A DNA stretch of 64,000 nucleotides from an uncultured Proteiniphilum sp. Its GTDB lineage: Bacteria; Bacteroidota; Bacteroidia; Bacteroidales; Dysgonomonadaceae. The stretch covers positions 181 through 64,180 of the forward strand of contig CAZRRC010000007.1 in NCBI GenBank assembly GCA_964602395.1. Reading direction: 5' to 3'. Position 1 is the stretch's first letter. Every line of letters begins with the position of its first letter. Made by a program: the position numbers and the translations under genes. The notes beneath the pieces were generated by a model, which was not told where the DNA came from, made no database searches, and saw only the letters and a list, made by a program, of their open reading frames with translations. Shown in pieces: positions 5,576 through 47,328 of the stretch.

Positions 5576-7531
5576 TTAATTGTTTGTTTTCGGTATGGTC
5601 GCCTGAAAGGGTGAGGCGGGCAGCCCTTCCCTGTTTTTCAAGTTTGCTTCAATGGGGTTATTTCCCCATGCATAACGTACTTTCACCGGATGGCTGATTC
5701 TGTCGTTCCAAAGGATGACCTTATTCTGATCGATGACAGCTTTGGCCCACACGTAACTGCCATCGGCTTCCTGTAAAGCAAAGCCCTTCAGTTCTTCTAC
5801 CGTCATCAGGTTGTTGGTTCCCTCTTTAAAAGAGAGTATGACCCGGTTGCCCTCACGGAAGACCTGCTCAAAGAGTGGTCCATTGCTCACCAGCTCCTTC
5901 TCGTCGTAGGCGATTTGGCGTGCTTGCAGTGAAAGCCGTCTACCTACCTCCTTTTTGTTGAGGGGATGGATGTCGTTCCATTCTCCGATATCGGTAGTGA
6001 CGACCAGCCCGGTGTAGGGTACTTTTTGTGTAAGTTGCAGTTGTATTTCCCTCATTTCTGCCCATTCACTTTCTGCCGGCTGTGGGGGATCTTGCATAAA
6101 GCTGGCTAGCTGCACAATCAGGAAAGGCAGCTCCTGCTGTTGCCAGAGGGTGCGCCAGTTACAAATCAACGATTCCATCAGTCCGGAATATTCATTGTAT
6201 CGACCGGTATTTGATTCACCCTGGTACCAGAGAACACCCTTGAGGCCCCAGTTCTTTAGGGGGTGAATCATGGCGTTGTAGAGACCGGTGGGTTTGTATT
6301 GAAAGAAGGTTTCCCCGGGCAACACTGGCATGGAGGTTCCTTGCTTGTATTTCCATATCCCCTCCAGGCATATCTCCTGCTTTTGCTCATCATGGAACAC
6401 TATTTTATAGGGCTTCTCCTCCACAAAGTGGGGAGTTCCGACGTAGCTGATCAGTCGCACCGTGATGTTGTTCTTTCCCGCTTTCAGCAGTCCGGCAGGA
6501 ATCTGATAGATGCGGGGAGGATACTGGTAGGCGGTGGTACCCACAAAATGACCGTTGACAAAAACCGAGTCGGCATCCACAATGCAGCCCATCCTAAGTG
6601 TGGCTGTTTTACCAGCAAGCTGTTCCGATACGGTGAAATCTTTCCTGAACCAGTGTGATCCGTTGATCGAATTCAGGCCATCGTTGCCCCAGTCTAGTGA
6701 AAAAAGATTCACATTTTTCCAGGTGGCATCGTCATGATCGGGTGCATACCAGGGGTGGTCTTTCTTTAATCCTTGATCATTCAGAAACAGCACGCTGTTC
6801 CATCGCTGTCGACGTGCACGATCAAGCTCACGAATGCTTTTCACGTGATTGTCGTCGCGGTAAATCGTTCTCTCATTGAGGTGAACCGGGAAGGCGGAAA
6901 GACCTTCTTCGCTGATCCAGGCCTCAGCAGGTGAGCCACCCACGCTGGCATTAAGCAAACCCACCGGTACGCCTGTTTTTTCATACAATTCCCGCGCGAA
7001 GAAATAGGCCACAGCCGAGAAGGAGAGTGCATTCTCGGGTGTGAGTGGTTGCCATGAGGCGGGTCGGATCTCATCGAGGGGATGATGAAAATTGTAGGTA
7101 AGGGGCACCTTCAGGTGGCGGATCATCGGGTTGCTGTACTGCTCCACCTCTGTCCGGTAGAGGTCCATGACCCGGCTTACGGGCAGTTCCATGTTCGACT
7201 GTCCGGAGCAGAGCCAGACGTCACCAATTAGGATGTTGCTGACCAGGATATCGTTTACCGACATCTGAAAGGGACCACCTGCCTGCTGTGGGGGCAGCAC
7301 GGTTTCCCAGTTTCCGCGGGTATCGGCTGTTGTGCTGAATGTTTGATTCAGAAACTGAATGGTGATGGTCTCACCCGGGTCGGCACTTCCCCAGAGGGTG
7401 ATCTCCCGGTCGCGTTGTAACACCATGCCGTCGGACACCAGTTGTGGCAATGTCACTTTTGCTTCGGAGGGCTGTACAGCAAGCAGTGCCAGAAGAAGGA
7501 AAGTCAGCGTTGTATGTTGTCTCTTCATCAT
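5576..7531 (-). CDS. CE20-type / sialate-O-acetylesterase-like SGNH esterase with inserted beta-sandwich (putative acetyl-xylan/xyloglucan esterase)
   Basis: Signal peptide; SDGMVLQRD; GDVWLCSGQSNME (Ser nucleophile); WYQGESN; DIHP (Asp-x-His). The SGNH domain is split by a jelly-roll insert (HWFRKDF...DADSVFVNG), the CE20 architecture. Confidence 0.85.
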   Translation of the reverse strand: MMKRQHTTLTFLLLALLAVQPSEAKVTLPQLVSDGMVLQRDREITLWGSADPGETITIQFLNQTFSTTADTRGNWETVLPPQQAGGPFQMSVNDILVSNILIGDVWLCSGQSNMELPVSRVMDLYRTEVEQYSNPMIRHLKVPLTYNFHHPLDEIRPASWQPLTPENALSFSAVAYFFARELYEKTGVPVGLLNASVGGSPAEAWISEEGLSAFPVHLNERTIYRDDNHVKSIRELDRARRQRWNSVLFLNDQGLKKDHPWYAPDHDDATWKNVNLFSLDWGNDGLNSINGSHWFRKDFTVSEQLAGKTATLRMGCIVDADSVFVNGHFVGTTAYQYPPRIYQIPAGLLKAGKNNITVRLISYVGTPHFVEEKPYKIVFHDEQKQEICLEGIWKYKQGTSMPVLPGETFFQYKPTGLYNAMIHPLKNWGLKGVLWYQGESNTGRYNEYSGLMESLICNWRTLWQQQELPFLIVQLASFMQDPPQPAESEWAEMREIQLQLTQKVPYTGLVVTTDIGEWNDIHPLNKKEVGRRLSLQARQIAYDEKELVSNGPLFEQVFREGNRVILSFKEGTNNLMTVEELKGFALQEADGSYVWAKAVIDQNKVILWNDRISHPVKVRYAWGNNPIEANLKNREGLPASPFQATIPKTNN

Positions 7532-7869
7532 TTTTTTGTTTCGCTTTGCAGGGTGCCCAGATAACTCTGCCTTAACCCGAAGAAATGGATCATGATCTTT
7601 TGCAGGTCGTTGCCGGCAATCACAGCACCTGCTCCTGTAAGAGTGGAAATCAGTGTAGAAGCGAAGCCGGTTGCTTTTTTCGTATCGCGCTTCTGGTTTT
7701 GTATGGTATGGAGTATCTCGCTTTCATCTACCGGATCAAAGAGAAGAGGGTGGGCGCGTTCCTGGTTTATCCAAGTGAAACCACCCTCCTTCCTTTGCAA
7801 CACGAAATATTCGAAAGCATATAGCAATGAGGATATCAAAAATCCGATAACAAATAATGAAATTCGCAT
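7528..7869 (-). pseudogene. GH115 alpha-glucuronidase remnant with a large in-frame internal deletion
   Basis: 113 aa: signal peptide, then GH115-like N-terminus (FVLQ..GFTWI..PLLFDPVDESEILHTIQNQKRDTKKATG..AVIAG) joined directly to LQKIMIHFFGLRQSYLG, which resembles the GH115 C-terminal consensus LQK(I/L)xIDxGGL(K/R)xSYLGP. Position upstream of esterase-MFS-GH10-GH43_1-GH67 fits a GH115 slot. Confidence 0.75.
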
Positions 7870-8055: not shown

Positions 8056-8058
8056 TTT

Positions 8059-8158
8059 GCCAGTCAATTCATTGTGCATAATCTGTGTTGGGGGGGGGTG
8101 ATTGATTCTTACCAGTCGATCCATTGCATATAATCAGTGTTGGCAAAAGGATGAATCT
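8059..8158 (-). repeat. Degenerate tandem copy (about 52 bp offset) of the 3' end of the CE15 fusion gene
   Basis: Gene end CAT CCT TTT GCC AAC ACT GAT TAT ATG CAA TGG ATC GAC TGG TAA is followed by CAC C8 AAC ACA GAT TAT GCA CAA TGA ATT GAC TGG CAA (NTDYMQWIDW versus NTDYAQ*IDW). Confidence 0.75.
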
Positions 8159-10694
8159 CTACGTTCGTCTCTGTTTCGCAATCTCCCAGCAGGAATTTAT
8201 CGATAAAAGCCTCAACTTCCGGTCGTTGTTGTTCGGGGAGGATGCAATGTCCGTGGTTCCCAACGATGGAGAATCCGAACCTATCGGCAATATCGAATGT
8301 TTCCCAGACCCGTTTGGCGGCTTTGCACGATACATAGCCCGACTCGTCGGCAAGCCATTTATAGTCGGGGTTTCCCAGGCAGAGCAATGCACGTGGTGCA
8401 ATCATCGACAAGAGTTCGTGGTGATCGAAGGGCAACTTGTTGACATGGTCTGAAAATTGAAACATCTCCTCCATAAACCATACATGGCTGGTTCTGGCCA
8501 GTGTCTCCACTTCACCCAGTGTTTCGGAAACACGCCATGCTGCCGCTCCGCCACCACCCGATTCCTGTGCGATGGTGAGGGCGATGCGTTCGTCGAATGC
8601 TGCCGCATAGATTGCCATTTTACCGGCAAAGGAACAGCCGGTGATGGCCAGGTGTTGCAGATCGATGGGTAGTTTGTCGGCTACGAGTTCCAGCCCGTCG
8701 ATCAGGCGGCTCACCCCCCACGACCAGGCGCTGTAGGCTCCCATATGGATTAATTCGGGATAGAGTCGATTGATTGGTTCTTCACCTCTTTTTTGCTGCC
8801 AGGCCATCACCTGGGGGAAGTTAAAAGCAATTTGTGCGATATTGCGGGAAGAGAAGAGGTCGGGTGGAAGGCTTCCAGCACCAAAACCAATTCCGATTAC
8901 AGCAGGGAAAGGACCCTCGCCCTGTGGCAGAATTACATGGGAGGTGAGGGTCAGCGTCTCCCCATTCACCGTGATCTGCACGCGTAAGGTGTCATTTTGG
9001 TAGTCGGCAGTGATGGTGTCGGGTCGTTCCGGCTTTTTGCCGATTTCGTAATGTTGGATTTCCGCACCGATCTCCATTCTTCTGCGTGCCCAGTCCCCGA
9101 AGTGGGTGGATCGTCCACTGCCGTCGGACCAGGCAAAGGGATCGGGTAGTTTTTCTATTACGGGTAATTCCTCCAGTGAGGGGAGAAAGAACTCAAAAGG
9201 GGATACCGAACTTTCGGTAGAATAGACCAGAGGTATATCCGACGTTTGGTGGTGAGTGGCAGGAGGAACTTCGAGTATGATTCTTTTATAACTTGTCAGA
9301 TTGGGAATTCCGCAATCGGTTATTTCACAAACAATATGGATACTTTTCCCCGCCATGTCTGAGGGGATCTTTATTGTTGCCAGTGGGGTATTGGCATGCT
9401 CTATCTCTATCCCTTCCGAATAGGTGCCTGCCTCGGGCAACAAAAGCCATTGATAAACCAATTGATCACCGTCGGGATCATATGAGGCAGAGGCGTCCAA
9501 AACAATTTCCTCTCCTTGTTGCGGCGTAATGGATAATATTTCCTTGTCGTTCTTTCCATTGACAACCACTACCGGATTTCGGTTACCCTTGCCCTCTTTG
9601 GCCCAGTCCATGCGGGCAGCAAAATTATTGAAGGTGGCAGGATAAAAGTAAGCTTCGTACTTTTCGGATGTTTCTTTTGCCTTTCCTGTATGGTTTGTAA
9701 AGCAAAGGGTTACTTGATCCATTCCCAATCCCCACTCAAAGTATCCTCCCCAGCCAATCTGTCCCGGCTTTCCCGGATCATTCAGACCATTTGGCATGAG
9801 ATGTAGGAAGGACGGTGTATCGCCCTCAACCCCATATTTGTTCTTGGGGTAGATCATCCCGAGGTGACCATGATTTTGAATATGGGTTGCATATTCATCC
9901 CATTTCCCGGCACCAATTCCATTCTGTGAAAGCCATGCACTCTCATCCCAGATAAAGAGGAGTTCTTTTTCGAATTCACGGCGCATCCATTGGTGAGAGC
10001 TGAACGGATAGTTGGTGTGTCGTTCTCCCCAGGGAACATCCTGGTCGGTAATGGTATAGACGCGCAGTTTATTTAAGAAGTCATCTAGTTCCTTTTCCGT
10101 CCGTTCCTGTTTCACACGCCAAAGGGCCTGAGCCAGTGTGTTTCCCCCTCCCCAGACAGCAACCCAAATAGGGCGTTCGTCGGCTTCATCCACCAGCTGA
10201 ATGATAAAATCACTTCCTTGTGAATGGTTGTTTTTTCCAATCTCTCCGTATCCCAAATTCAAACTTCCCGGCATGACCCGCTTCCGTAAATAGCCTGCAC
10301 TGGGCCAGTAGCCTATTTGCTGCTGTCCGTTTTCCACTTCCGGTGCAAGAAAGCTCTTTTGTTCCGATCGTTTCTTCAGGTTGGGCAGGTCTTTTTCATA
10401 TGCATTGATCGTCCGGTGTAGAATCTCCATCCAGGAAAGGGGATAAGTCCGTCCGCTGCTGTTCCAGCCTCCGGAAGCAATCAACGCTTCAATCTCAAAC
10501 AGATCCGCATGCACAAGCAGGCGTATCATGGATTGCATGTCATCAGGCTCCACATCTCCTGGAGCAATATCAGTTAAAATAACGATCCGGGGTTTAAGCG
10601 GTACAGAGGTGGAATCTTTTGGGTTACTTGCTGCATAGGATACCTGTGTCATGGTAACCAGGCACAAAATAGACAAAAAATATTTTGTAATCAT
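8109..10694 (-). CDS. Secreted fusion: DUF1593 (Sde182 nucleoside-hydrolase-like) + Ig-like domain + CE15 glucuronoyl-esterase-family domain
   Basis: N-terminal RIVILTDI..EPDDMQSMIRLL, EGDTPSFL, GWGG (DUF1593); LDASASYDPDGDQL Ig-like module; C-terminal LPDPF, AWSWGVSRLIDGL, TGCSFAGK, QESGGGG, LPFDHHEL, HGHC (CE15). The signal peptide fits ATG 10694; the ORF-track start 10754 is a TTG. Confidence 0.85.
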   Translation of the reverse strand: MITKYFLSILCLVTMTQVSYAASNPKDSTSVPLKPRIVILTDIAPGDVEPDDMQSMIRLLVHADLFEIEALIASGGWNSSGRTYPLSWMEILHRTINAYEKDLPNLKKRSEQKSFLAPEVENGQQQIGYWPSAGYLRKRVMPGSLNLGYGEIGKNNHSQGSDFIIQLVDEADERPIWVAVWGGGNTLAQALWRVKQERTEKELDDFLNKLRVYTITDQDVPWGERHTNYPFSSHQWMRREFEKELLFIWDESAWLSQNGIGAGKWDEYATHIQNHGHLGMIYPKNKYGVEGDTPSFLHLMPNGLNDPGKPGQIGWGGYFEWGLGMDQVTLCFTNHTGKAKETSEKYEAYFYPATFNNFAARMDWAKEGKGNRNPVVVVNGKNDKEILSITPQQGEEIVLDASASYDPDGDQLVYQWLLLPEAGTYSEGIEIEHANTPLATIKIPSDMAGKSIHIVCEITDCGIPNLTSYKRIILEVPPATHHQTSDIPLVYSTESSVSPFEFFLPSLEELPVIEKLPDPFAWSDGSGRSTHFGDWARRRMEIGAEIQHYEIGKKPERPDTITADYQNDTLRVQITVNGETLTLTSHVILPQGEGPFPAVIGIGFGAGSLPPDLFSSRNIAQIAFNFPQVMAWQQKRGEEPINRLYPELIHMGAYSAWSWGVSRLIDGLELVADKLPIDLQHLAITGCSFAGKMAIYAAAFDERIALTIAQESGGGGAAAWRVSETLGEVETLARTSHVWFMEEMFQFSDHVNKLPFDHHELLSMIAPRALLCLGNPDYKWLADESGYVSCKAAKRVWETFDIADRFGFSIVGNHGHCILPEQQRPEVEAFIDKFLLGDCETETNVEIHPFANTDYMQWIDW

Positions 10695-10766
10695 ATCGGC
10701 ATGATGTTTGATATTCATATTGTAAATGTAGTGGCTATTTTTATAAAGCAGCAAACCGTGGCTGTA

Positions 10767-13517
10767 TTATTCAGATACCAGCATCAAGTTGCTCTCTTTC
10801 AGCCCCGGCGAAGTAGCCTTGATTGTGATGCTACCCGGTTTGCCTGCTTCACTTCTGACTATCACCAGGCATTGTCCGCTAAATGTCTCTCTTATGGAGG
10901 AAGGGAAAGGAGTCATGTCGGCCGGATTGCCGTTGTCGGTCGCCACAATCTCACCAGCTCCCTCAATTGTAAAATGAACGGGATAGACAGCATCTGGCAC
11001 AAGGAGTCCATTACGGTCGGTTACTTTTACGGTCACGAAAGCGAGATCATTTCCATCGTCAGCAATTGTTTTCCTGTCGGTTTCCAGTAGTAGTGACTCG
11101 GCTACATCCGTAGTTTGCACCACGTCCTCCGCCCATTTTTCACCATTTTTGTAGGCGATTGCCTTCAGTTCACCCGGTTCGTAACGGATGTCATCCCACC
11201 GGAGCCGGTATTCGAATTCACCCTTTTTCTTTCGTCCGAGCGACCTGCCATTCAGGAACAGTTCAGCCTCATCGCCGGAGGTAAAGAGATGTACCGGTGT
11301 GATCTGACCACTCCGGCAGGGCCAGTTCCAGTGGGGCAGGATATGCACCATGGGCAGCTCGGGCCGCCAGCGCGACTGGTAGAGATAGAAACGGTCTTTT
11401 TTGAATCCTGCCAGGTCGATGATGCCGCAGTAGGAGCTCCGTGCTGAATAGTAGGGGGTGGGCTCTCCCAGATGATCCCATCCCGTCCAGACGAATCCAC
11501 CGGCCACAAAGGGATGTTTGTCCTGCATCATGAATACTTTGTCGGGCGACGAGCCAAAGTCTACCGCATAGAGTTCGTAGGCGCTGACCTGTGCATTTTT
11601 TGCATCTCCTCCCTGGCCCTCCCGCACCGGAGAACTCATTTTCTCCGTAACAGGGAAAAGGTAGATCCCCCTGCTACTGAAGGAGGAAGCCACCTCGCTA
11701 CCAATAATTACCTTTTTGGGGAAGGTAGTGTGAAAATAATCATATTGGGGTGTCGTGCGGATCCGATCAGTTCCCTCAAATTCAGGCTCCTGTCGGATAC
11801 CCTCTCCCTGGTAGTTGAGACCGATCACATCGGGAACACGGGGGAAAGGCATATCCGGCTTGGCGTAGTTCAAGGAGAGGGTCGTGGGGCGTGTGGAGTC
11901 TTCCTCTTTGATAATCTCGTTTAGCCATTCTGCTATTGCTGCACCTTCTTCGTCGGTGTATTGTTCACCCACTTCGTTGCCATAGCTCCACATGATGATC
12001 GAGGGATGGTTTCTGTCGCGGCGTACGAAGGAGCGGGTGTCGGCTTCAGCCCATTCTGTAAAAATCAGGTGAAAGTCGTGCGGTGTCTTTTTCCTTTCCC
12101 AGGAATCGAAGATTTCGTTTACTACCAGGAATCCCATTCGGTCGGTCAGCTCCAGCAACTCCGGTGCAGGTGGGTTGTGGGCCATGCGGATGGCATTGCA
12201 TCCCATCTCCTGCAATAATTCAAGTTGACGTTCAGCGGCACGCCGGTTGAAGGCTGCACCCAGTGCACCCAGATCGTGATGCTGGTTCACCCCTTGGAGC
12301 CTGATGACTTCACCGTTCACCAGCACACCCCGTTGCGGATCTAATTGCAGATCACGGATGCCAAAGTTGGTTTCATAACGGTCGATTGTCCTGCCATTTT
12401 GCTGCAAGGTGGTGATGGCCTGGTAAAGGTGAGGTGTCTGGGAGGGCTTTGGCCCCCACAGTCTTGGGCTTCTTATCACTGTGGTGTGTTTGCTTTTACT
12501 GCTCTCCCCTGCATCAAGTGAAATTGTCGAAGTAGGAAAACGGGCAATGCTTTTTTTCCCTTTTATACCCAGGCTGTCTAGCTCATAGATCTCTGTTTCG
12601 ATCACGACTGTCACATCCGATTCCGATTCGTTGTCTACGTTTACTTCCAGGTCGACCGTTGCTGAGGATGCGGAGATCTCTCTCGCCGTCACAAAAGTTC
12701 CCCACTGACCCATGTGCACCGGGTGGGTTTTGATCAGCCAAACATTGCGGTAGATTCCAGCACCTGGGTACCAGCGGGAGGAGTGGTTGGGGTTGTCGAG
12801 GCGGATAGCCAGCTGGTTCTCTTTCCCATAGAGAATATAGGGTGTCAGATCGAGCCGCCAGGAATTATAACCATAGGGCCAACCGCCCACCAGGGTGCCG
12901 TTGAGCCAAACCATGGCATAGGACATGGCGCCCTCCACGTCAAGAAAAATGGAGCGTCCTTCGTCTGTAGCAGGAATGGAAATTTTCTTTCTGTACCAGG
13001 CCACACCCTGTACAGGGAGACGACCCATTCCACCACCCACTTCCGGATTGTCTCCTTCATAAAATGGACCTTTGATGGCCCAGTCGTGAGGCAAATCGAC
13101 CTTCTCCCAATTAGAGTCATCGAAATCATGTTGTACGAAAGGAAAATCTTTTCCAGGCGCTTCACCTTCGGGGCGGAGATAATGTTTTTCAGAATCTTTG
13201 ATAAAATGATTTGCCGTGGGCAGGATCCATGGCTTTAATACCGCTTCGGAAGAGCCCCTTTCAACCGCTTCTGTAGGTTTAGCATCTGCTATCAGATACT
13301 CCCGGGCCTCTTCAATGGCAGGCCGTACATCATAGTTGAGTGGGTCAATCTTTTCCGTTATATCGTATCTGTAAAAAGACCAACTATCGTTGAGAGAGAT
13401 CTTCTCCCGATCGATGGATCTTTTTTGTGGAATGAGGGAACAGGATCCAGTCAATACAGCAATAACAATTGTGAGCAGCGATCGCATTGTTATTCGGGCG
13501 AAAGAATGGGATGTCAT
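10767..13517 (-). CDS. GH2 glycoside hydrolase (beta-galactosidase-like), lipoprotein
   Basis: LPHDW, WYRK, FEG-like VEGAMSY, GVNQHHDLG, IRMAHNPP, WSYGNE (acid/base), IGSE (nucleophile), VWTGWDHLGEPTP; C-terminal DUF4982/Ig domains; lipobox LTGSC. Confidence 0.9.
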   Translation of the reverse strand: MTSHSFARITMRSLLTIVIAVLTGSCSLIPQKRSIDREKISLNDSWSFYRYDITEKIDPLNYDVRPAIEEAREYLIADAKPTEAVERGSSEAVLKPWILPTANHFIKDSEKHYLRPEGEAPGKDFPFVQHDFDDSNWEKVDLPHDWAIKGPFYEGDNPEVGGGMGRLPVQGVAWYRKKISIPATDEGRSIFLDVEGAMSYAMVWLNGTLVGGWPYGYNSWRLDLTPYILYGKENQLAIRLDNPNHSSRWYPGAGIYRNVWLIKTHPVHMGQWGTFVTAREISASSATVDLEVNVDNESESDVTVVIETEIYELDSLGIKGKKSIARFPTSTISLDAGESSKSKHTTVIRSPRLWGPKPSQTPHLYQAITTLQQNGRTIDRYETNFGIRDLQLDPQRGVLVNGEVIRLQGVNQHHDLGALGAAFNRRAAERQLELLQEMGCNAIRMAHNPPAPELLELTDRMGFLVVNEIFDSWERKKTPHDFHLIFTEWAEADTRSFVRRDRNHPSIIMWSYGNEVGEQYTDEEGAAIAEWLNEIIKEEDSTRPTTLSLNYAKPDMPFPRVPDVIGLNYQGEGIRQEPEFEGTDRIRTTPQYDYFHTTFPKKVIIGSEVASSFSSRGIYLFPVTEKMSSPVREGQGGDAKNAQVSAYELYAVDFGSSPDKVFMMQDKHPFVAGGFVWTGWDHLGEPTPYYSARSSYCGIIDLAGFKKDRFYLYQSRWRPELPMVHILPHWNWPCRSGQITPVHLFTSGDEAELFLNGRSLGRKKKGEFEYRLRWDDIRYEPGELKAIAYKNGEKWAEDVVQTTDVAESLLLETDRKTIADDGNDLAFVTVKVTDRNGLLVPDAVYPVHFTIEGAGEIVATDNGNPADMTPFPSSIRETFSGQCLVIVRSEAGKPGSITIKATSPGLKESNLMLVSE

Positions 13518-25068: not shown

Positions 25069-26235
25069 TCAGTGAAACAATAGCTGTGCATACTGATAGA
25101 GCGACCTTCGCCAGGTGAGCCACTCATGTGCCGTCTTGGGCGACTCGTAATAATGGTGTCGAATACCCTGCTTCTGCAGCATTCTGCGAAAAGCATTGAT
25201 CGATTGAGGAAAGACTTCGGGCTCGGTGGTGCCCACACCCAGCCAAAGCACCCTGATTTGTTCGTTGACATGGTTTCCATCACGGAAGGCACCCCCCAGG
25301 AAGCTCTCCGTATCAATATCGGCTGCACTGGGGTAATTGGCTGTGCAGCTGAATCCTCCGTAGTAGGCAAACGTGTTGAGGTTGTTCATGATGATGCGCA
25401 TGGTCTGGTTGGCACCCATCGAGAGGCCGGCAATGGCACGGCTTTCGCGATGATTGATGGTACGGAAGCGGCGGTCGATCATTGGGATGATCTCGCCGAT
25501 CATCACCTCCTCAAATACCATGGCAGGGCGGGTGGGGTTCGAGACCACCTGTTGCTCCTTCGGTCTGAAAGCATAACCGTTGTCCATTACGATGATCATT
25601 GGCTTGGCCTTGCCTTCCGCAATCAGGTTATCAAGAATAAGCCCGGCTTTACCTTGTCCTGCCCATCCGGTCTCATCTTCGAAACTGCCATGTTGCAGGT
25701 AGAGTACGGGATAACGCTTTTCACCAGAAGTGTCGTAACAGGGTGGGGTGTAGACAAAACAACGGCGCCATGCACCGGTAATTTTCGAGTGGTAGTTAAG
25801 CTCGCTGACTTGTCCATGCGGCACATCCTTCAGTGCATAGAACGCCTGATCATGGGCTGGTACCTCGATCCCGCTGCCCCAGCGTCCTGCGCCATAGAAG
25901 TAGCGGGTTCCCGGATCAGGTACCGAAGCCCCGTCGATATTGAGCTGGTAATAGTGAAAGCCCTCCTCCTGGGGAGCCGACTCACCAGTCCAGACTCCTT
26001 GTTCGTTTTTTTTCAGGTCATACTTCACACCCCCGATATCCAACTGTACGTACTTCGCATCGGGTGCTGCAAGCTGAACCCTTACTCTCCCTTCTGAGTT
26101 GACTTGCGGAAATTGTTTTCCAGGTTGATTTACTTCAGAAGGACTGAAATCCTCCCTTACTGGGCTCTGGGCTTGGGTACTGCCGAAAACCAGAAGAGCC
26201 ATCAGATTTAAGATCCAATAATTTCTGCTGTTCAT
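25069..26235 (-). CDS. CBM48-like + CE1 esterase (feruloyl/acetyl xylan esterase)
   Basis: N-terminal sugar-binding module (GFHYYQLNIDGASVPDP); YTPPCY, YPVLYLQHG, GLSMG nucleophile elbow, HEWLTWRRSL catalytic His; signal peptide. Confidence 0.88.
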   Translation of the reverse strand: MNSRNYWILNLMALLVFGSTQAQSPVREDFSPSEVNQPGKQFPQVNSEGRVRVQLAAPDAKYVQLDIGGVKYDLKKNEQGVWTGESAPQEEGFHYYQLNIDGASVPDPGTRYFYGAGRWGSGIEVPAHDQAFYALKDVPHGQVSELNYHSKITGAWRRCFVYTPPCYDTSGEKRYPVLYLQHGSFEDETGWAGQGKAGLILDNLIAEGKAKPMIIVMDNGYAFRPKEQQVVSNPTRPAMVFEEVMIGEIIPMIDRRFRTINHRESRAIAGLSMGANQTMRIIMNNLNTFAYYGGFSCTANYPSAADIDTESFLGGAFRDGNHVNEQIRVLWLGVGTTEPEVFPQSINAFRRMLQKQGIRHHYYESPKTAHEWLTWRRSLYQYAQLLFH

Positions 26236-46044: not shown

Positions 46045-47328
46045 TTATTTTTCCAAGGAGAGGTTTGCTTCGGGGGAGATGATCCTATATGTGCCGCTCA
46101 GGTGCATCCATGCAAACATTCGCAATAAACCGTCGTAGTAAGCATCGAAGTAGCCATCCTCATAAGGTTCATGGCGGCTGTTCCAAAAATGTTCCACAAA
46201 CTCCCGGCTCTTTTCGTGTGAACAAACCAATGATATGGCCGCCGAGCTGGCCACCAGACCGAGCGAGTGACGCAGTTTCTTATAGCCACCGGCACCCAGG
46301 ATTTCAGACACTTCACTCCCATCCACATTGTACTGATCCACGAAGGTCTCCAGACCTTTTGCGTACAGGAAATTCTGAATCGTATGTCCATATTGCTGCT
46401 GCCACTCCCTGTCTTCGCAAGCCCAGGAATAATCGAGGGCGATATTCATAGGGACACGCCATGAGTCGAACCTGAATGCATCACCGATGATGCGTCCACT
46501 GTTGAGTAGCGATCCGTCGTAGTGACTATAGTCGGGGTTTAACCCTGTTTCGGGATGAATGACTTTTTTCAGGTAATCACGGCTTATTTGGGCACACTCC
46601 CTCCAGTAATCGGATCTTCCATCTTCGGCCCATTGAGCCCACACTTCGTAGAAGGCTGGAACATGATAGGAGGGATCTGTAAAACTGGCTGCAAATCCTA
46701 CGGGTACAAAAGTGATCAACTGCTTTTCGGGATGTATCAGCGGCGTTACGCCGTTATCTCCGGTTTTGTCCATGGAGTTGTTGAGAATGAACTGTGCTTC
46801 GGAAAGATAATCGATGCCGGTTTCATTTCCCCAGAGGTTGGAAGCAAAGATCAGGGACGTGACAAAATATAACTCTCCATCGGAAGCAGGACCTTCTGAA
46901 TTGGGTGTACCGTCTGTACGGCAGCTCCAACGAAAGTATGCTTTCATCGGTCCTTCCTGATGTTGCATGTAATGCTTCGACCAGCGCCAAAGACGATCGA
47001 ATATCTCTTTTTTATCGAACTGCACGGCAATCATCATACCATAAGACATACCTTCCGAGCGTACATCATTATTTTTGATGTCGGAAATGTAGGCCATGGA
47101 ATCTCCTGCTTCAAAATATATTTTCTGTGGACCTTCGAACAAGTCGGAGAATGCTTCTTTCATTTTGGCATCTATCTCACGTTGTTTGTAGCCCATTTCA
47201 ACAAGCAGATTGCGGTACTCTCCCGTTTCAAAGGCCCCTTTCTCCCAGGGTTTCAGAGCTGCGGATGTGCAATGGGTCAATAGCAAGCAACCTATTAAAA
47301 TGAGCAGTTGAAAAAATTTGATGTTCAT
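46045..47328 (-). CDS. rex8A: GH8 reducing-end xylose-releasing exo-oligoxylanase (Rex-like)
   Basis: DVRSEGMSYGM (acid Glu), PASDGE, TDPSYH, FRFDSWR, YYDGLL; GETGEYRNL-type N-terminus of Bacteroidetes Rex; possible lipobox LLTHC. Confidence 0.87.
   Translation of the reverse strand: MNIKFFQLLILIGCLLLTHCTSAALKPWEKGAFETGEYRNLLVEMGYKQREIDAKMKEAFSDLFEGPQKIYFEAGDSMAYISDIKNNDVRSEGMSYGMMIAVQFDKKEIFDRLWRWSKHYMQHQEGPMKAYFRWSCRTDGTPNSEGPASDGELYFVTSLIFASNLWGNETGIDYLSEAQFILNNSMDKTGDNGVTPLIHPEKQLITFVPVGFAASFTDPSYHVPAFYEVWAQWAEDGRSDYWRECAQISRDYLKKVIHPETGLNPDYSHYDGSLLNSGRIIGDAFRFDSWRVPMNIALDYSWACEDREWQQQYGHTIQNFLYAKGLETFVDQYNVDGSEVSEILGAGGYKKLRHSLGLVASSAAISLVCSHEKSREFVEHFWNSRHEPYEDGYFDAYYDGLLRMFAWMHLSGTYRIISPEANLSLEK

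Follow-up and report, generated by a model that had tools for sequence, protein, structure and literature searches.

What does it mean when a glucuronoyl esterase (GE) carries a phenylalanine where its family typically has the arginine of the oxyanion hole? The question is raised by a 64,000-nucleotide (nt) stretch of DNA from an uncultured Proteiniphilum sp. (contig CAZRRC010000007.1, positions 181 to 64,180; hereafter the window), in which a minus-strand gene encodes a domain of carbohydrate esterase family 15 (CE15) fused to a nucleoside-hydrolase-like (NH-like) module. On the plus strand, positions 8622-8639 read accggcaaaggaacagcc; the reverse complement, GGC TGT TCC TTT GCC GGT, encodes G706-C707-S708-F709-A710-G711 within a minus-strand open reading frame (ORF) at 8109..10754. 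This ORF has 881 codons counted from a TTG, and its 881-amino-acid (aa) frame is used for residue numbers throughout. The first-pass annotation, which had noticed the Phe from the letters alone, gave the codons correctly and left the strand unstated. By analogy with characterised relatives, we consider it likely that this protein of the Arg-less Phe subtype, to which BeCE15A of Bacteroides eggerthii also belongs, is a working esterase with the triad Ser708/His836/Glu731 whose substrates are glucuronoyl esters on xylan fragments.

The assignment of the domain to CE15 is supported by both sequence and fold. The Pfam model GCE_fung (PF22244) matched residues 592-819 with 235.9 bits (cut-off 27). 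In the PDB, the best match of the C-terminal 380 residues was PrCE15 of Piromyces rhizinflata (8TRX; E 6e-118), followed by Cip2, StGE2, CuGE, FsCE15 and LfCE15C, and nine solved CE15 structures matched the window domain at E <= 1e-52. An AlphaFold2 model of residues 502-881 (pLDDT 91.2, pTM 0.92) has an alpha/beta-hydrolase fold superposable on CE15: Foldseek gave a TM-score of 0.95 and a root-mean-square deviation of 1.6 Å with 8TRX, and TM-scores of 0.84-0.86 with 3PIC, 6RTV and 4G4G. To fix the register of the Phe, we used HMMER alignments to 8TRX, 3PIC and 4G4G and a MAFFT alignment with BeCE15A, PrCE15, Cip2 and StGE2. F709 aligns to the Arg of Cip2 and StGE2 (StGE2 R214) and to the Tyr of PrCE15; the first-pass annotation, which had placed a Phe at the oxyanion Arg position and proposed a check against StGE2 and Cip2, was right on this point. 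The domain has the following features.

8112..9242, minus strand: CE15 domain, fungal-type, with a Cys pair (residues 505-881; Pfam GCE_fung, 8TRX, AlphaFold2 model, Foldseek).
8733..8735, minus strand: Y674, Tyr in 95% of Phe-/Tyr-type domains and Leu/Met in Arg-type domains; candidate member of a repacked shell (see below).
8619..8639, minus strand: nucleophile elbow G706-C707-S708-F709-A710-G711-K712, with C707 (StGE2 C212), the nucleophile S708 (StGE2 S213) and the uronate-binding Lys K712 (StGE2 K217).
8628-8630, minus strand: TTT, the codon of F709, which replaces the oxyanion Arg in the alignment.
8607..8618, minus strand: helix residues M713 and Y716, just past the elbow, which co-vary with the aromatic residue 709; Arg-type domains have Gly and Val/Ala/Ile.
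8562..8564, minus strand: E731, catalytic acid in QESGGGG (StGE2 Glu236), invariant in all groups.
8505..8507, minus strand: E750, at the place of StGE2 Gln259, a ligand of uronate O2/O3.
8355..8357, minus strand: W800 (StGE2 Trp310), uronate binding.
8244..8249, minus strand: H836, catalytic base (StGE2 H346), and C837, partner of C707 (StGE2 C347), in HGHC; both 100% conserved.

Only the oxyanion Arg is replaced among the StGE2 functional residues mapped. The catalytic triad, already read as intact from the letters, aligns residue by residue with that of StGE2; the QESG (Q730-E731-S732-G733) and HGHC (H834-G835-H836-C837) motifs are present in the translation, and the Cys pair faces its StGE2 counterpart. 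The window domain has the sequence match, the fold, the Ser-His-Glu triad and the uronate-binding Lys/Glu/Trp of CE15, and the Arg at Ser+1, which provides the oxyanion guanidinium, is the one CE15 feature without a match. This Arg is typical of the family but is no requirement for membership in CAZy, as BeCE15A, OtCE15B, PrCE15 and Fl6 are all without it. At the equivalent of position 750, bacterial GEs carry Glu where fungal GEs carry Gln (e.g. PvCE15 Glu302). Judging from its place inside the GCE_fung match and from the retention of the heptapeptide through synonymous codon changes, the GCSFAGK elbow is not a chance match.

The Phe is shared with a large number of relatives. Of the 120 nearest clusters (90%-identity clusters), 110 have the identical GCSFAGK; among all 120, tandem-CE15 proteins have GCSYAGK and Arg is found in just three domains. 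An exhaustive search of 1.84 billion representatives returned 385 proteins at E <= 1e-30. Among the best 150 of these 385 (clusters at 50% identity), the Ser+1 residue is Tyr in 94, Arg in 21, Phe in 18 and Trp in 5, with a few small residues besides, and Arg is seen only at about 45% identity or less. We then built a FastTree phylogeny with the motif columns masked, on database representatives whose sampling is uneven. The window domain falls among 116 domains (113 Phe, 3 Tyr) that form a clade with support 0.999. This clade is nested inside an aromatic-type clade of about 200 domains that spans several phyla; the nearest relatives are metagenome-assembled genomes (MAGs) of Proteiniphilum, Petrimonas and Fermentimonas (Dysgonomonadaceae). 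Across 24 related loci, all codons of the heptapeptide show synonymous changes (TTT or TTC for Phe) but the amino acids stay the same, and this synonymous-only drift indicates purifying selection. The Phe clade remains Phe although Tyr is only one transversion away. On the tree and the codon pattern, Phe709 is an inherited signature of a large Phe-type clade and not a local oddity or a lesion.

The same data bear on the possibility of a catalytically crippled module, kept for uronate or xylan binding or simply decaying. Loss of the oxyanion Arg is known to reduce the kcat of OtCE15A more than 80-fold (variant R268A, in which the acyl-enzyme is trapped; PMC8933493), and OtCE15B of Opitutus terrae, which has Tyr (18.6 s-1 M-1; PMC6069808), and BeCE15A are both very weak. 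However, the elbow drifts only synonymously in a large clade of several phyla, and more than 200 aromatic-type domains retain Ser, His, Glu and both Cys without exception (100%). In addition, the Tyr-type PrCE15 turns over benzyl glucuronate (BnzGlcA) at 22 s-1, with a Km of 5 mM (PMC11345330), and BeCE15A has measurable and ordered substrate preferences. We therefore regard a crippled module as very unlikely. The residues expected to bind the uronate, K712, E750 and W800, are 95-100% conserved in the clade; at position 750, all aromatic-type domains (100%) have Glu, whereas 73% of the Arg-type ones have Gln. Moreover, the genome of the window (2.9 Mb, 98% complete) encodes two bacterial-type CE15 paralogues with Arg (motifs GHSRQGK and GVSRLGK; contig C181, 1532-1972, and contig C40, 1727-2170; loci L070 and L071), so that the Phe-type copy has been retained beside them and is no decayed sole copy.

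Several other arrangements were observed among the related proteins. P0122 (3132 aa) carries eight tandem CE15 domains in which the Arg position is Val, Asn, Ala (five times) or Gly (elbows GCSVAGK, GCSNNGK, GCSAxGK and GCSGSGK). Within P0002-P0013, tandem-CE15 proteins of about 1350-1500 aa have two Tyr-type domains, and some of the hosts are named termite-gut Dysgonamonadaceae, 'Candidatus Ordinivivax' or Symbiothrix; P0009 and P0011 combine one Tyr-type and one Arg-type domain, and P0013 (797 aa) has an Arg-type and a Phe-type domain on one chain. Tyr-type GCSYAGK domains, 49-51% identical to the window domain, were also found in rumen/gut Prevotellaceae and Bacteroidaceae MAGs (L061-L064). 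A text search of the literature for the exact strings GCSFAGK and GCSYAGK found no mention of them.

We compared the Phe-, Tyr-, Trp- and Arg-type domains column by column to find out what accompanies the aromatic residue. About nine positions switch together with residue 709 when Arg gives way to an aromatic residue.

Position 603: Leu in the aromatic type, Phe in the Arg type.
Position 666: Pro in the aromatic type, Ser in the Arg type.
Position 674: Tyr in the aromatic type, Leu/Met in the Arg type.
Position 687: Gly in the aromatic type, Ala in the Arg type.
Position 710: Ala in the aromatic type, Asn/Tyr/Trp in the Arg type.
Position 713: Met in the aromatic type, Gly in the Arg type.
Position 716: Phe/Tyr in the aromatic type, Val/Ala/Ile in the Arg type.
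Position 734: Gly in the aromatic type, Ser/Ala in the Arg type.
Position 750: Glu in the aromatic type, Gln in the Arg type.

In the window domain, all shell positions (L603, P666, Y674, G687, G734, E750, M713 and the aromatic 716) match BeCE15A and the clade consensus. The helix that comes after the nucleophile elbow (208-219 of the model, domain numbering) has residues 709, 713 and 716 on the same face. As the co-variation reads, the change from Arg to Phe is a repacked shell and not a point substitution. Lying next to the nucleophile, this hydrophobic shell probably determines the form of the pocket that takes up the alcohol (aglycone) moiety of the ester. A remodelled beta3 loop, acting as the classical backbone oxyanion donor, was also considered, as MAFFT had flagged G627 and a loop longer than that of Cip2 and StGE2. 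This was an alignment artefact: HMMER aligns G627 to a Gly of Cip2, and the median length of the beta3 loop is 22 in Tyr-type and Arg-type domains alike.

The published biochemistry of relatives gives an idea of what such a domain can do. The first-pass annotation had mentioned weakly active aromatic-for-Arg CE15s from Bacteroidota polysaccharide utilization loci (PULs), and BeCE15A, with Phe231, is indeed one (PUL 27; Kmezik et al. 2021, PMC8417218). We identified the retrieved sequence P0370 as BeCE15A-Rex8A because its S230/F231/E253 numbering fits the paper; its CE15 domain is 63% identical to that of the window over 379 residues. Like the window domain, BeCE15A has Phe at the Arg position in an identical GCSFAGKMA elbow, the same triad, Cys pair and co-varying residues. 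It is likewise part of a two-module protein and is encoded in a complex glucuronoarabinoxylan PUL with GH10, GH43, GH67, GH31, GH95, GH97, CE1, GH5 and GH8. The two differ in their partner, which is a C-terminal GH8 (Rex) in BeCE15A and an N-terminal NH-like module in the window, where GH8 is a separate gene; in the acid motif, QEPGGGG in BeCE15A and QESGGGG in the window (Pro is found in 33% of Phe-type domains); and in their host, Bacteroides versus a Dysgonomonadaceae-like bacterium. On BnzGlcA, BeCE15A has a kcat/KM of 0.075 s-1 mM-1, and it prefers BnzGlcA to allyl glucuronate (AllylGlcA), the latter to methyl glucuronate (MeGlcA), and all of these by far to methyl galacturonate (MeGalA), on which activity is about 100-fold below BnzGlcA (PMC8417218). 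The F-to-R test proposed in the first-pass annotation has already been published for this enzyme: F231R abolished activity instead of restoring it, and F231Y was also inactive (PMC8417218). The co-varying shell, if epistatic, would explain why both variants failed. The paper names His357 as the base of BeCE15A; P0370 reads H357-M358-H359-C360, and it is His359, just before the disulfide Cys, that aligns with StGE2 His346 and PrCE15 His355.

PrCE15 (8TRX; Gruninger et al. 2024, PMC11345330) is the best structural match and is also Arg-less, with an aromatic Ser+1 residue, a Cys pair that forms a disulfide, and equivalents of A710, M713, F716, G734, Y674, P666, L603 and E750. It differs in its Tyr, a possible hydroxyl donor, in its eukaryotic host and in sequence (48.7% identity to the window domain). 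Its Tyr at Ser+1 recurs in 26 of 35 anaerobic-fungal GEs, and PrCE15 is inactive on MeGlcA and MeGalA (PMC11345330). This rumen-fungal enzyme has the full bacterial aromatic-type residue set, which is compatible with the bacterium-to-fungus transfer discussed in PMC11345330. OtCE15B and Fl6 (Flavimarina sp. Hel_I_48) are bacterial, fungal-type and Arg-less like the window domain, but both are Tyr-type (the Fl6 elbow is GCSYAGK). Fl6, which is encoded in a glucuronoxylan PUL, is active as a GE (PMC12247016), whereas OtCE15B is nearly inactive and has another genomic context. Cip2 (3PIC) and StGE2 (4G4G/4G4J) share with the window domain the fold, the acid on QESG, the Cys pair, aligned to their disulfide, and the Lys/Trp uronate ligands; they have Arg at Ser+1, Asn at +2, Gly at +5, Val/Ile at +8 and Gln at 750, and are 37-39% identical to it.

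The genomic context bears on the substrate. The large ORFs of the window all run on the minus strand and together make up one very large xylan PUL, in which glycoside hydrolase (GH) genes follow each other in this order.

Part 1: GH67, GH43, GH10, a major facilitator superfamily (MFS) transporter and a SASA-type esterase.
Part 2: the NH-like-CE15 gene.
Part 3: GH2, GH29, GH31, GH43-CBM6, GH127, GH97, GH43-CBM6, a CE1-like esterase (25069-26235, minus strand; Pfam 'Putative esterase') and GH43.
Part 4: a hybrid two-component system (HTCS) regulator.
Part 5: GH3, GH95, GH97, GH31, a second SASA-type esterase, GH8 (46045-47328, minus strand; a separate gene), GH43, GH5 and GH10-CBM4_9.
Part 6: a DUF5627 surface-glycan-binding-like protein and two SusD/SusC pairs.

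No pectin-active family (GH28; polysaccharide lyases PL1, PL9 and PL10; CE8; CE12) was found in the 64-kb window. By its gene content, including the alpha-glucuronidase GH67, the locus is a PUL for glucuronoarabinoxylan, not for pectin. When 68 related loci were compared, the order GH2-CE15-(SASA)-MFS-GH10-GH43-GH67 was seen again in at least 9 further loci of Bacteroidota, and in Planctomycetota Phe-type CE15 domains are fused to GH10 xylanases. The GH2 gene directly upstream of the Phe-type CE15 (10767-13517; 916 aa; DUF4982, GH2_C5) has a counterpart at this place in at least 12 loci of several Bacteroidota families (L003, L006, L008, L013-L016, L019, L021, L022, L028 and L051). This conserved GH2-CE15 pairing may be a clue to the substrate of the esterase.

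A shift to galacturonoyl esters, as in pectin, had been suggested by the first-pass annotation as one outcome of the Phe. Some CE15s from Bacteroidota pectin PULs, as well as OtCE15A, do accept MeGalA (PMC10807430, PMC6069808), but these enzymes keep the Arg. MeGalA is moreover a very poor substrate of BeCE15A and no substrate of PrCE15, the glucuronate-binding residues are conserved, and the synteny in relatives is with GH67, GH10 and GH43. Because the locus is a glucuronoarabinoxylan PUL with GH67, and given the published substrate profiles, we rejected this reading, which we hold to be extremely unlikely. PvCE15 and the other CE15s of pectin PULs were also discarded as a source of the aromatic variant, since they keep the Arg (PvCE15 Arg265).

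The NH-like-CE15 fusion is previously undescribed. Its gene model and N-terminal features are the following.

8109..10694, minus strand: gene for both modules, encoding 861 aa when read from the ATG of M21 (ORF list and translation).
10716-10718 (ATG) and 10752-10754 (TTG), minus strand: in-frame upstream starts, giving up to 881 aa.
10632..10694, minus strand: putative signal peptide MITKYFLSILCLVTMTQVSYA/AS, type I without lipobox, judged by eye; homologous N-termini in L001, L002 and L065.
9738..10589, minus strand: Sde_0182/nucleoside-hydrolase-like domain (PF07632, former DUF1593; residues 56-339; Pfam 248.4 bits).
10539-10571, minus strand: acidic motif D62..E69-x-D71-D72 in the PF07632 domain.
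9267..9509, minus strand: Sde0182_C beta-sandwich (PF21027; residues 416-496; Pfam 88 bits), aligned to the C-terminal domain of 2YHG.
9240..9266, minus strand: fusion junction PPATHHQTS; sister genomes instead have a stop codon that ends the NH-like gene and a signal peptide on the CE15.

The ATG at 10692-10694 is the likely start, because the resulting 861 aa match the length of database cluster P0004 (30 member sequences, 99% identical to the window protein). With what looks like a type I signal peptide lacking a lipobox, the protein is probably periplasmic and soluble. The N-terminal part (residues 57-496) matches PDB 2YHG, the C-terminal region of Sde_0182, with an E value of 2e-71; the match covers the N-terminal two thirds of the window protein and the acidic motif is kept, but Sde_0182 carries carbohydrate-binding modules (CBMs) where the window protein carries an esterase. 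Among 41 homologues of the NH-like module, identity reaches at least 95% at 140 positions, D62, E69, D71 and D72 among them; these four make up a motif resembling a Ca2+/ribose site. As summarised in PMC8910321, the Sde_0182 NH-like domain was inactive on nucleosides and is thought to be furanose-binding (Hehemann et al. 2011). Its stand-alone homologues sit among GH31, GH97, GH127, GH43-CBM6 and GH95 genes.

Relatives show the two modules in several states. In L065 (10019-12726), the NH-like (487 aa) and CE15 (415 aa) genes are separate and adjacent with a 4-nt overlap, and the CE15 has its own signal peptide (...FQLTA/REIPLVY). In L002 (10022-13831) there are three genes, a second NH-like gene lying between the NH-like and CE15 genes, while L001 (10013-12574) has one fused ORF of 853 aa. 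In the window, L001, P0004 and P0012, loss of the stop codon and of the signal peptide of the CE15 has left the modules joined in a single polypeptide.

Downstream of the gene, 18 nt past the stop codon, we observed a 35-nt relic copy (8057-8091) of its last codons (8109-8143), reading NTDYAQ*IDWQ against NTDYMQWIDW* (28/35 nt match; score reached in 0/5000 shuffles). Its reading as a leftover of the fusion was rejected. The copy is missing downstream of the CE15 gene in all 16 relatives examined, whether fused or unfused, and it is therefore lineage-specific and not tied to the fusion. A 113-codon minus-strand ORF (7528-7869) lies between the CE15 gene and the SASA-type esterase.

If the protein is the glucuronoyl esterase that we consider likely, Ser708 would attack the ester carbonyl of a (4-O-methyl-)glucuronoyl ester on a xylo-oligosaccharide. 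His836, as the base, would be held by a predicted Cys707-Cys837 disulfide and polarised by Glu731, and Lys712, Glu750 and Trp800 would keep the uronate in place. With no guanidinium at hand, the main-chain NH of residue 709 would stabilise the oxyanion, together with some second donor or none, Phe709 itself being one element of a putatively co-evolved hydrophobic shell (Leu603, Pro666, Tyr674, Gly687, Ala710, Met713, Phe/Tyr716, Gly734 and Glu750). The enzyme would thus de-esterify the glucuronic acid side chains of imported glucuronoarabinoxylan fragments, before the GH67 alpha-glucuronidase and the GH10 and GH43 enzymes of the same PUL finish their degradation.

Several points weigh against this proposal. 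The loss of the guanidinium is expected to be costly, as the R268A variant of OtCE15A indicates. BeCE15A was not saturable at 40 mM and is about 60-fold below PrCE15 and about 500-fold below the best GE (PMC8417218), a weakness taken by its authors and by a 2023 review as a hint of another true substrate. Finally, a periplasmic location limits the substrate to fragments small enough to pass SusC, which fits poorly with bulky lignin esters.

These points lead to the alternative of an altered acyl specificity in complex xylan, in which the Phe-type clade would cleave an ester other than the lignin-glucuronoyl one, its shell being adapted to, for example, a small alkyl or sugar ester of glucuronic acid, an ester on a furanosyl-bearing side chain or a hydroxycinnamoyl ester. 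BeCE15A is very slow and unsaturable on all four GE model substrates; the 2023 review, which finds Arg-less CE15s puzzling, and a 2026 clade analysis suggest undiscovered natural substrates for them. The fusion partners, of furanose-binding type (NH-like) in the window and an oligosaccharide-specific GH8 in B. eggerthii, also argue for oligosaccharide substrates rather than polymeric lignin ones, and the PUL targets a feruloylated, highly branched arabinoxylan. Yet Lys712, Glu750 and Trp800, the uronate ligands, show strict conservation throughout the clade, and BeCE15A still favours glucuronoyl esters among the substrates tested. Within the PUL, the CE1-like esterase and the two SASA-domain (acetylesterase-family) proteins are candidates for the feruloyl and acetyl esters. 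As for a CE15 'feruloyl esterase', a lead cited by the 2026 clade paper and a feruloyl esterase review, it goes back to the CAZy-listed Fl6, whose primary paper saw no product with phenolic-acid esters despite this label (PMC12247016). Overall, we rate an altered specificity as unlikely. A more far-reaching form of it, which we think quite unlikely, is that the Phe-type clade uses an Arg-independent mechanism, with a repacked hydrophobic shell and another second oxyanion donor or none, on a further ester of complex arabinoxylan oligosaccharides; the lineage-specific NH-like fusion would then mark a bifunctional enzyme for recognising or cleaving an esterified uronic acid side chain that bears a furanosyl decoration.

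Taken as stated, the finding matters little, as Phe-for-Arg in a CE15 and the reversion mutants were published in 2021. The set of shell residues nevertheless gives a rational multi-site swap for testing why the single reversions failed, and the fusion, together with the Arg-type paralogues of the same genome, makes a convenient system for a side-by-side comparison of the enzyme types. If true, the bifunctional-enzyme reading would give the PF07632 family its first function. For the CE15 family, the Arg-less state is the rule in a very large multi-phylum clade and not the exception of a few enzymes, and the Phe type is consistently placed in core operons for glucuronoxylan, beside GH67, which narrows the search for its natural substrate.

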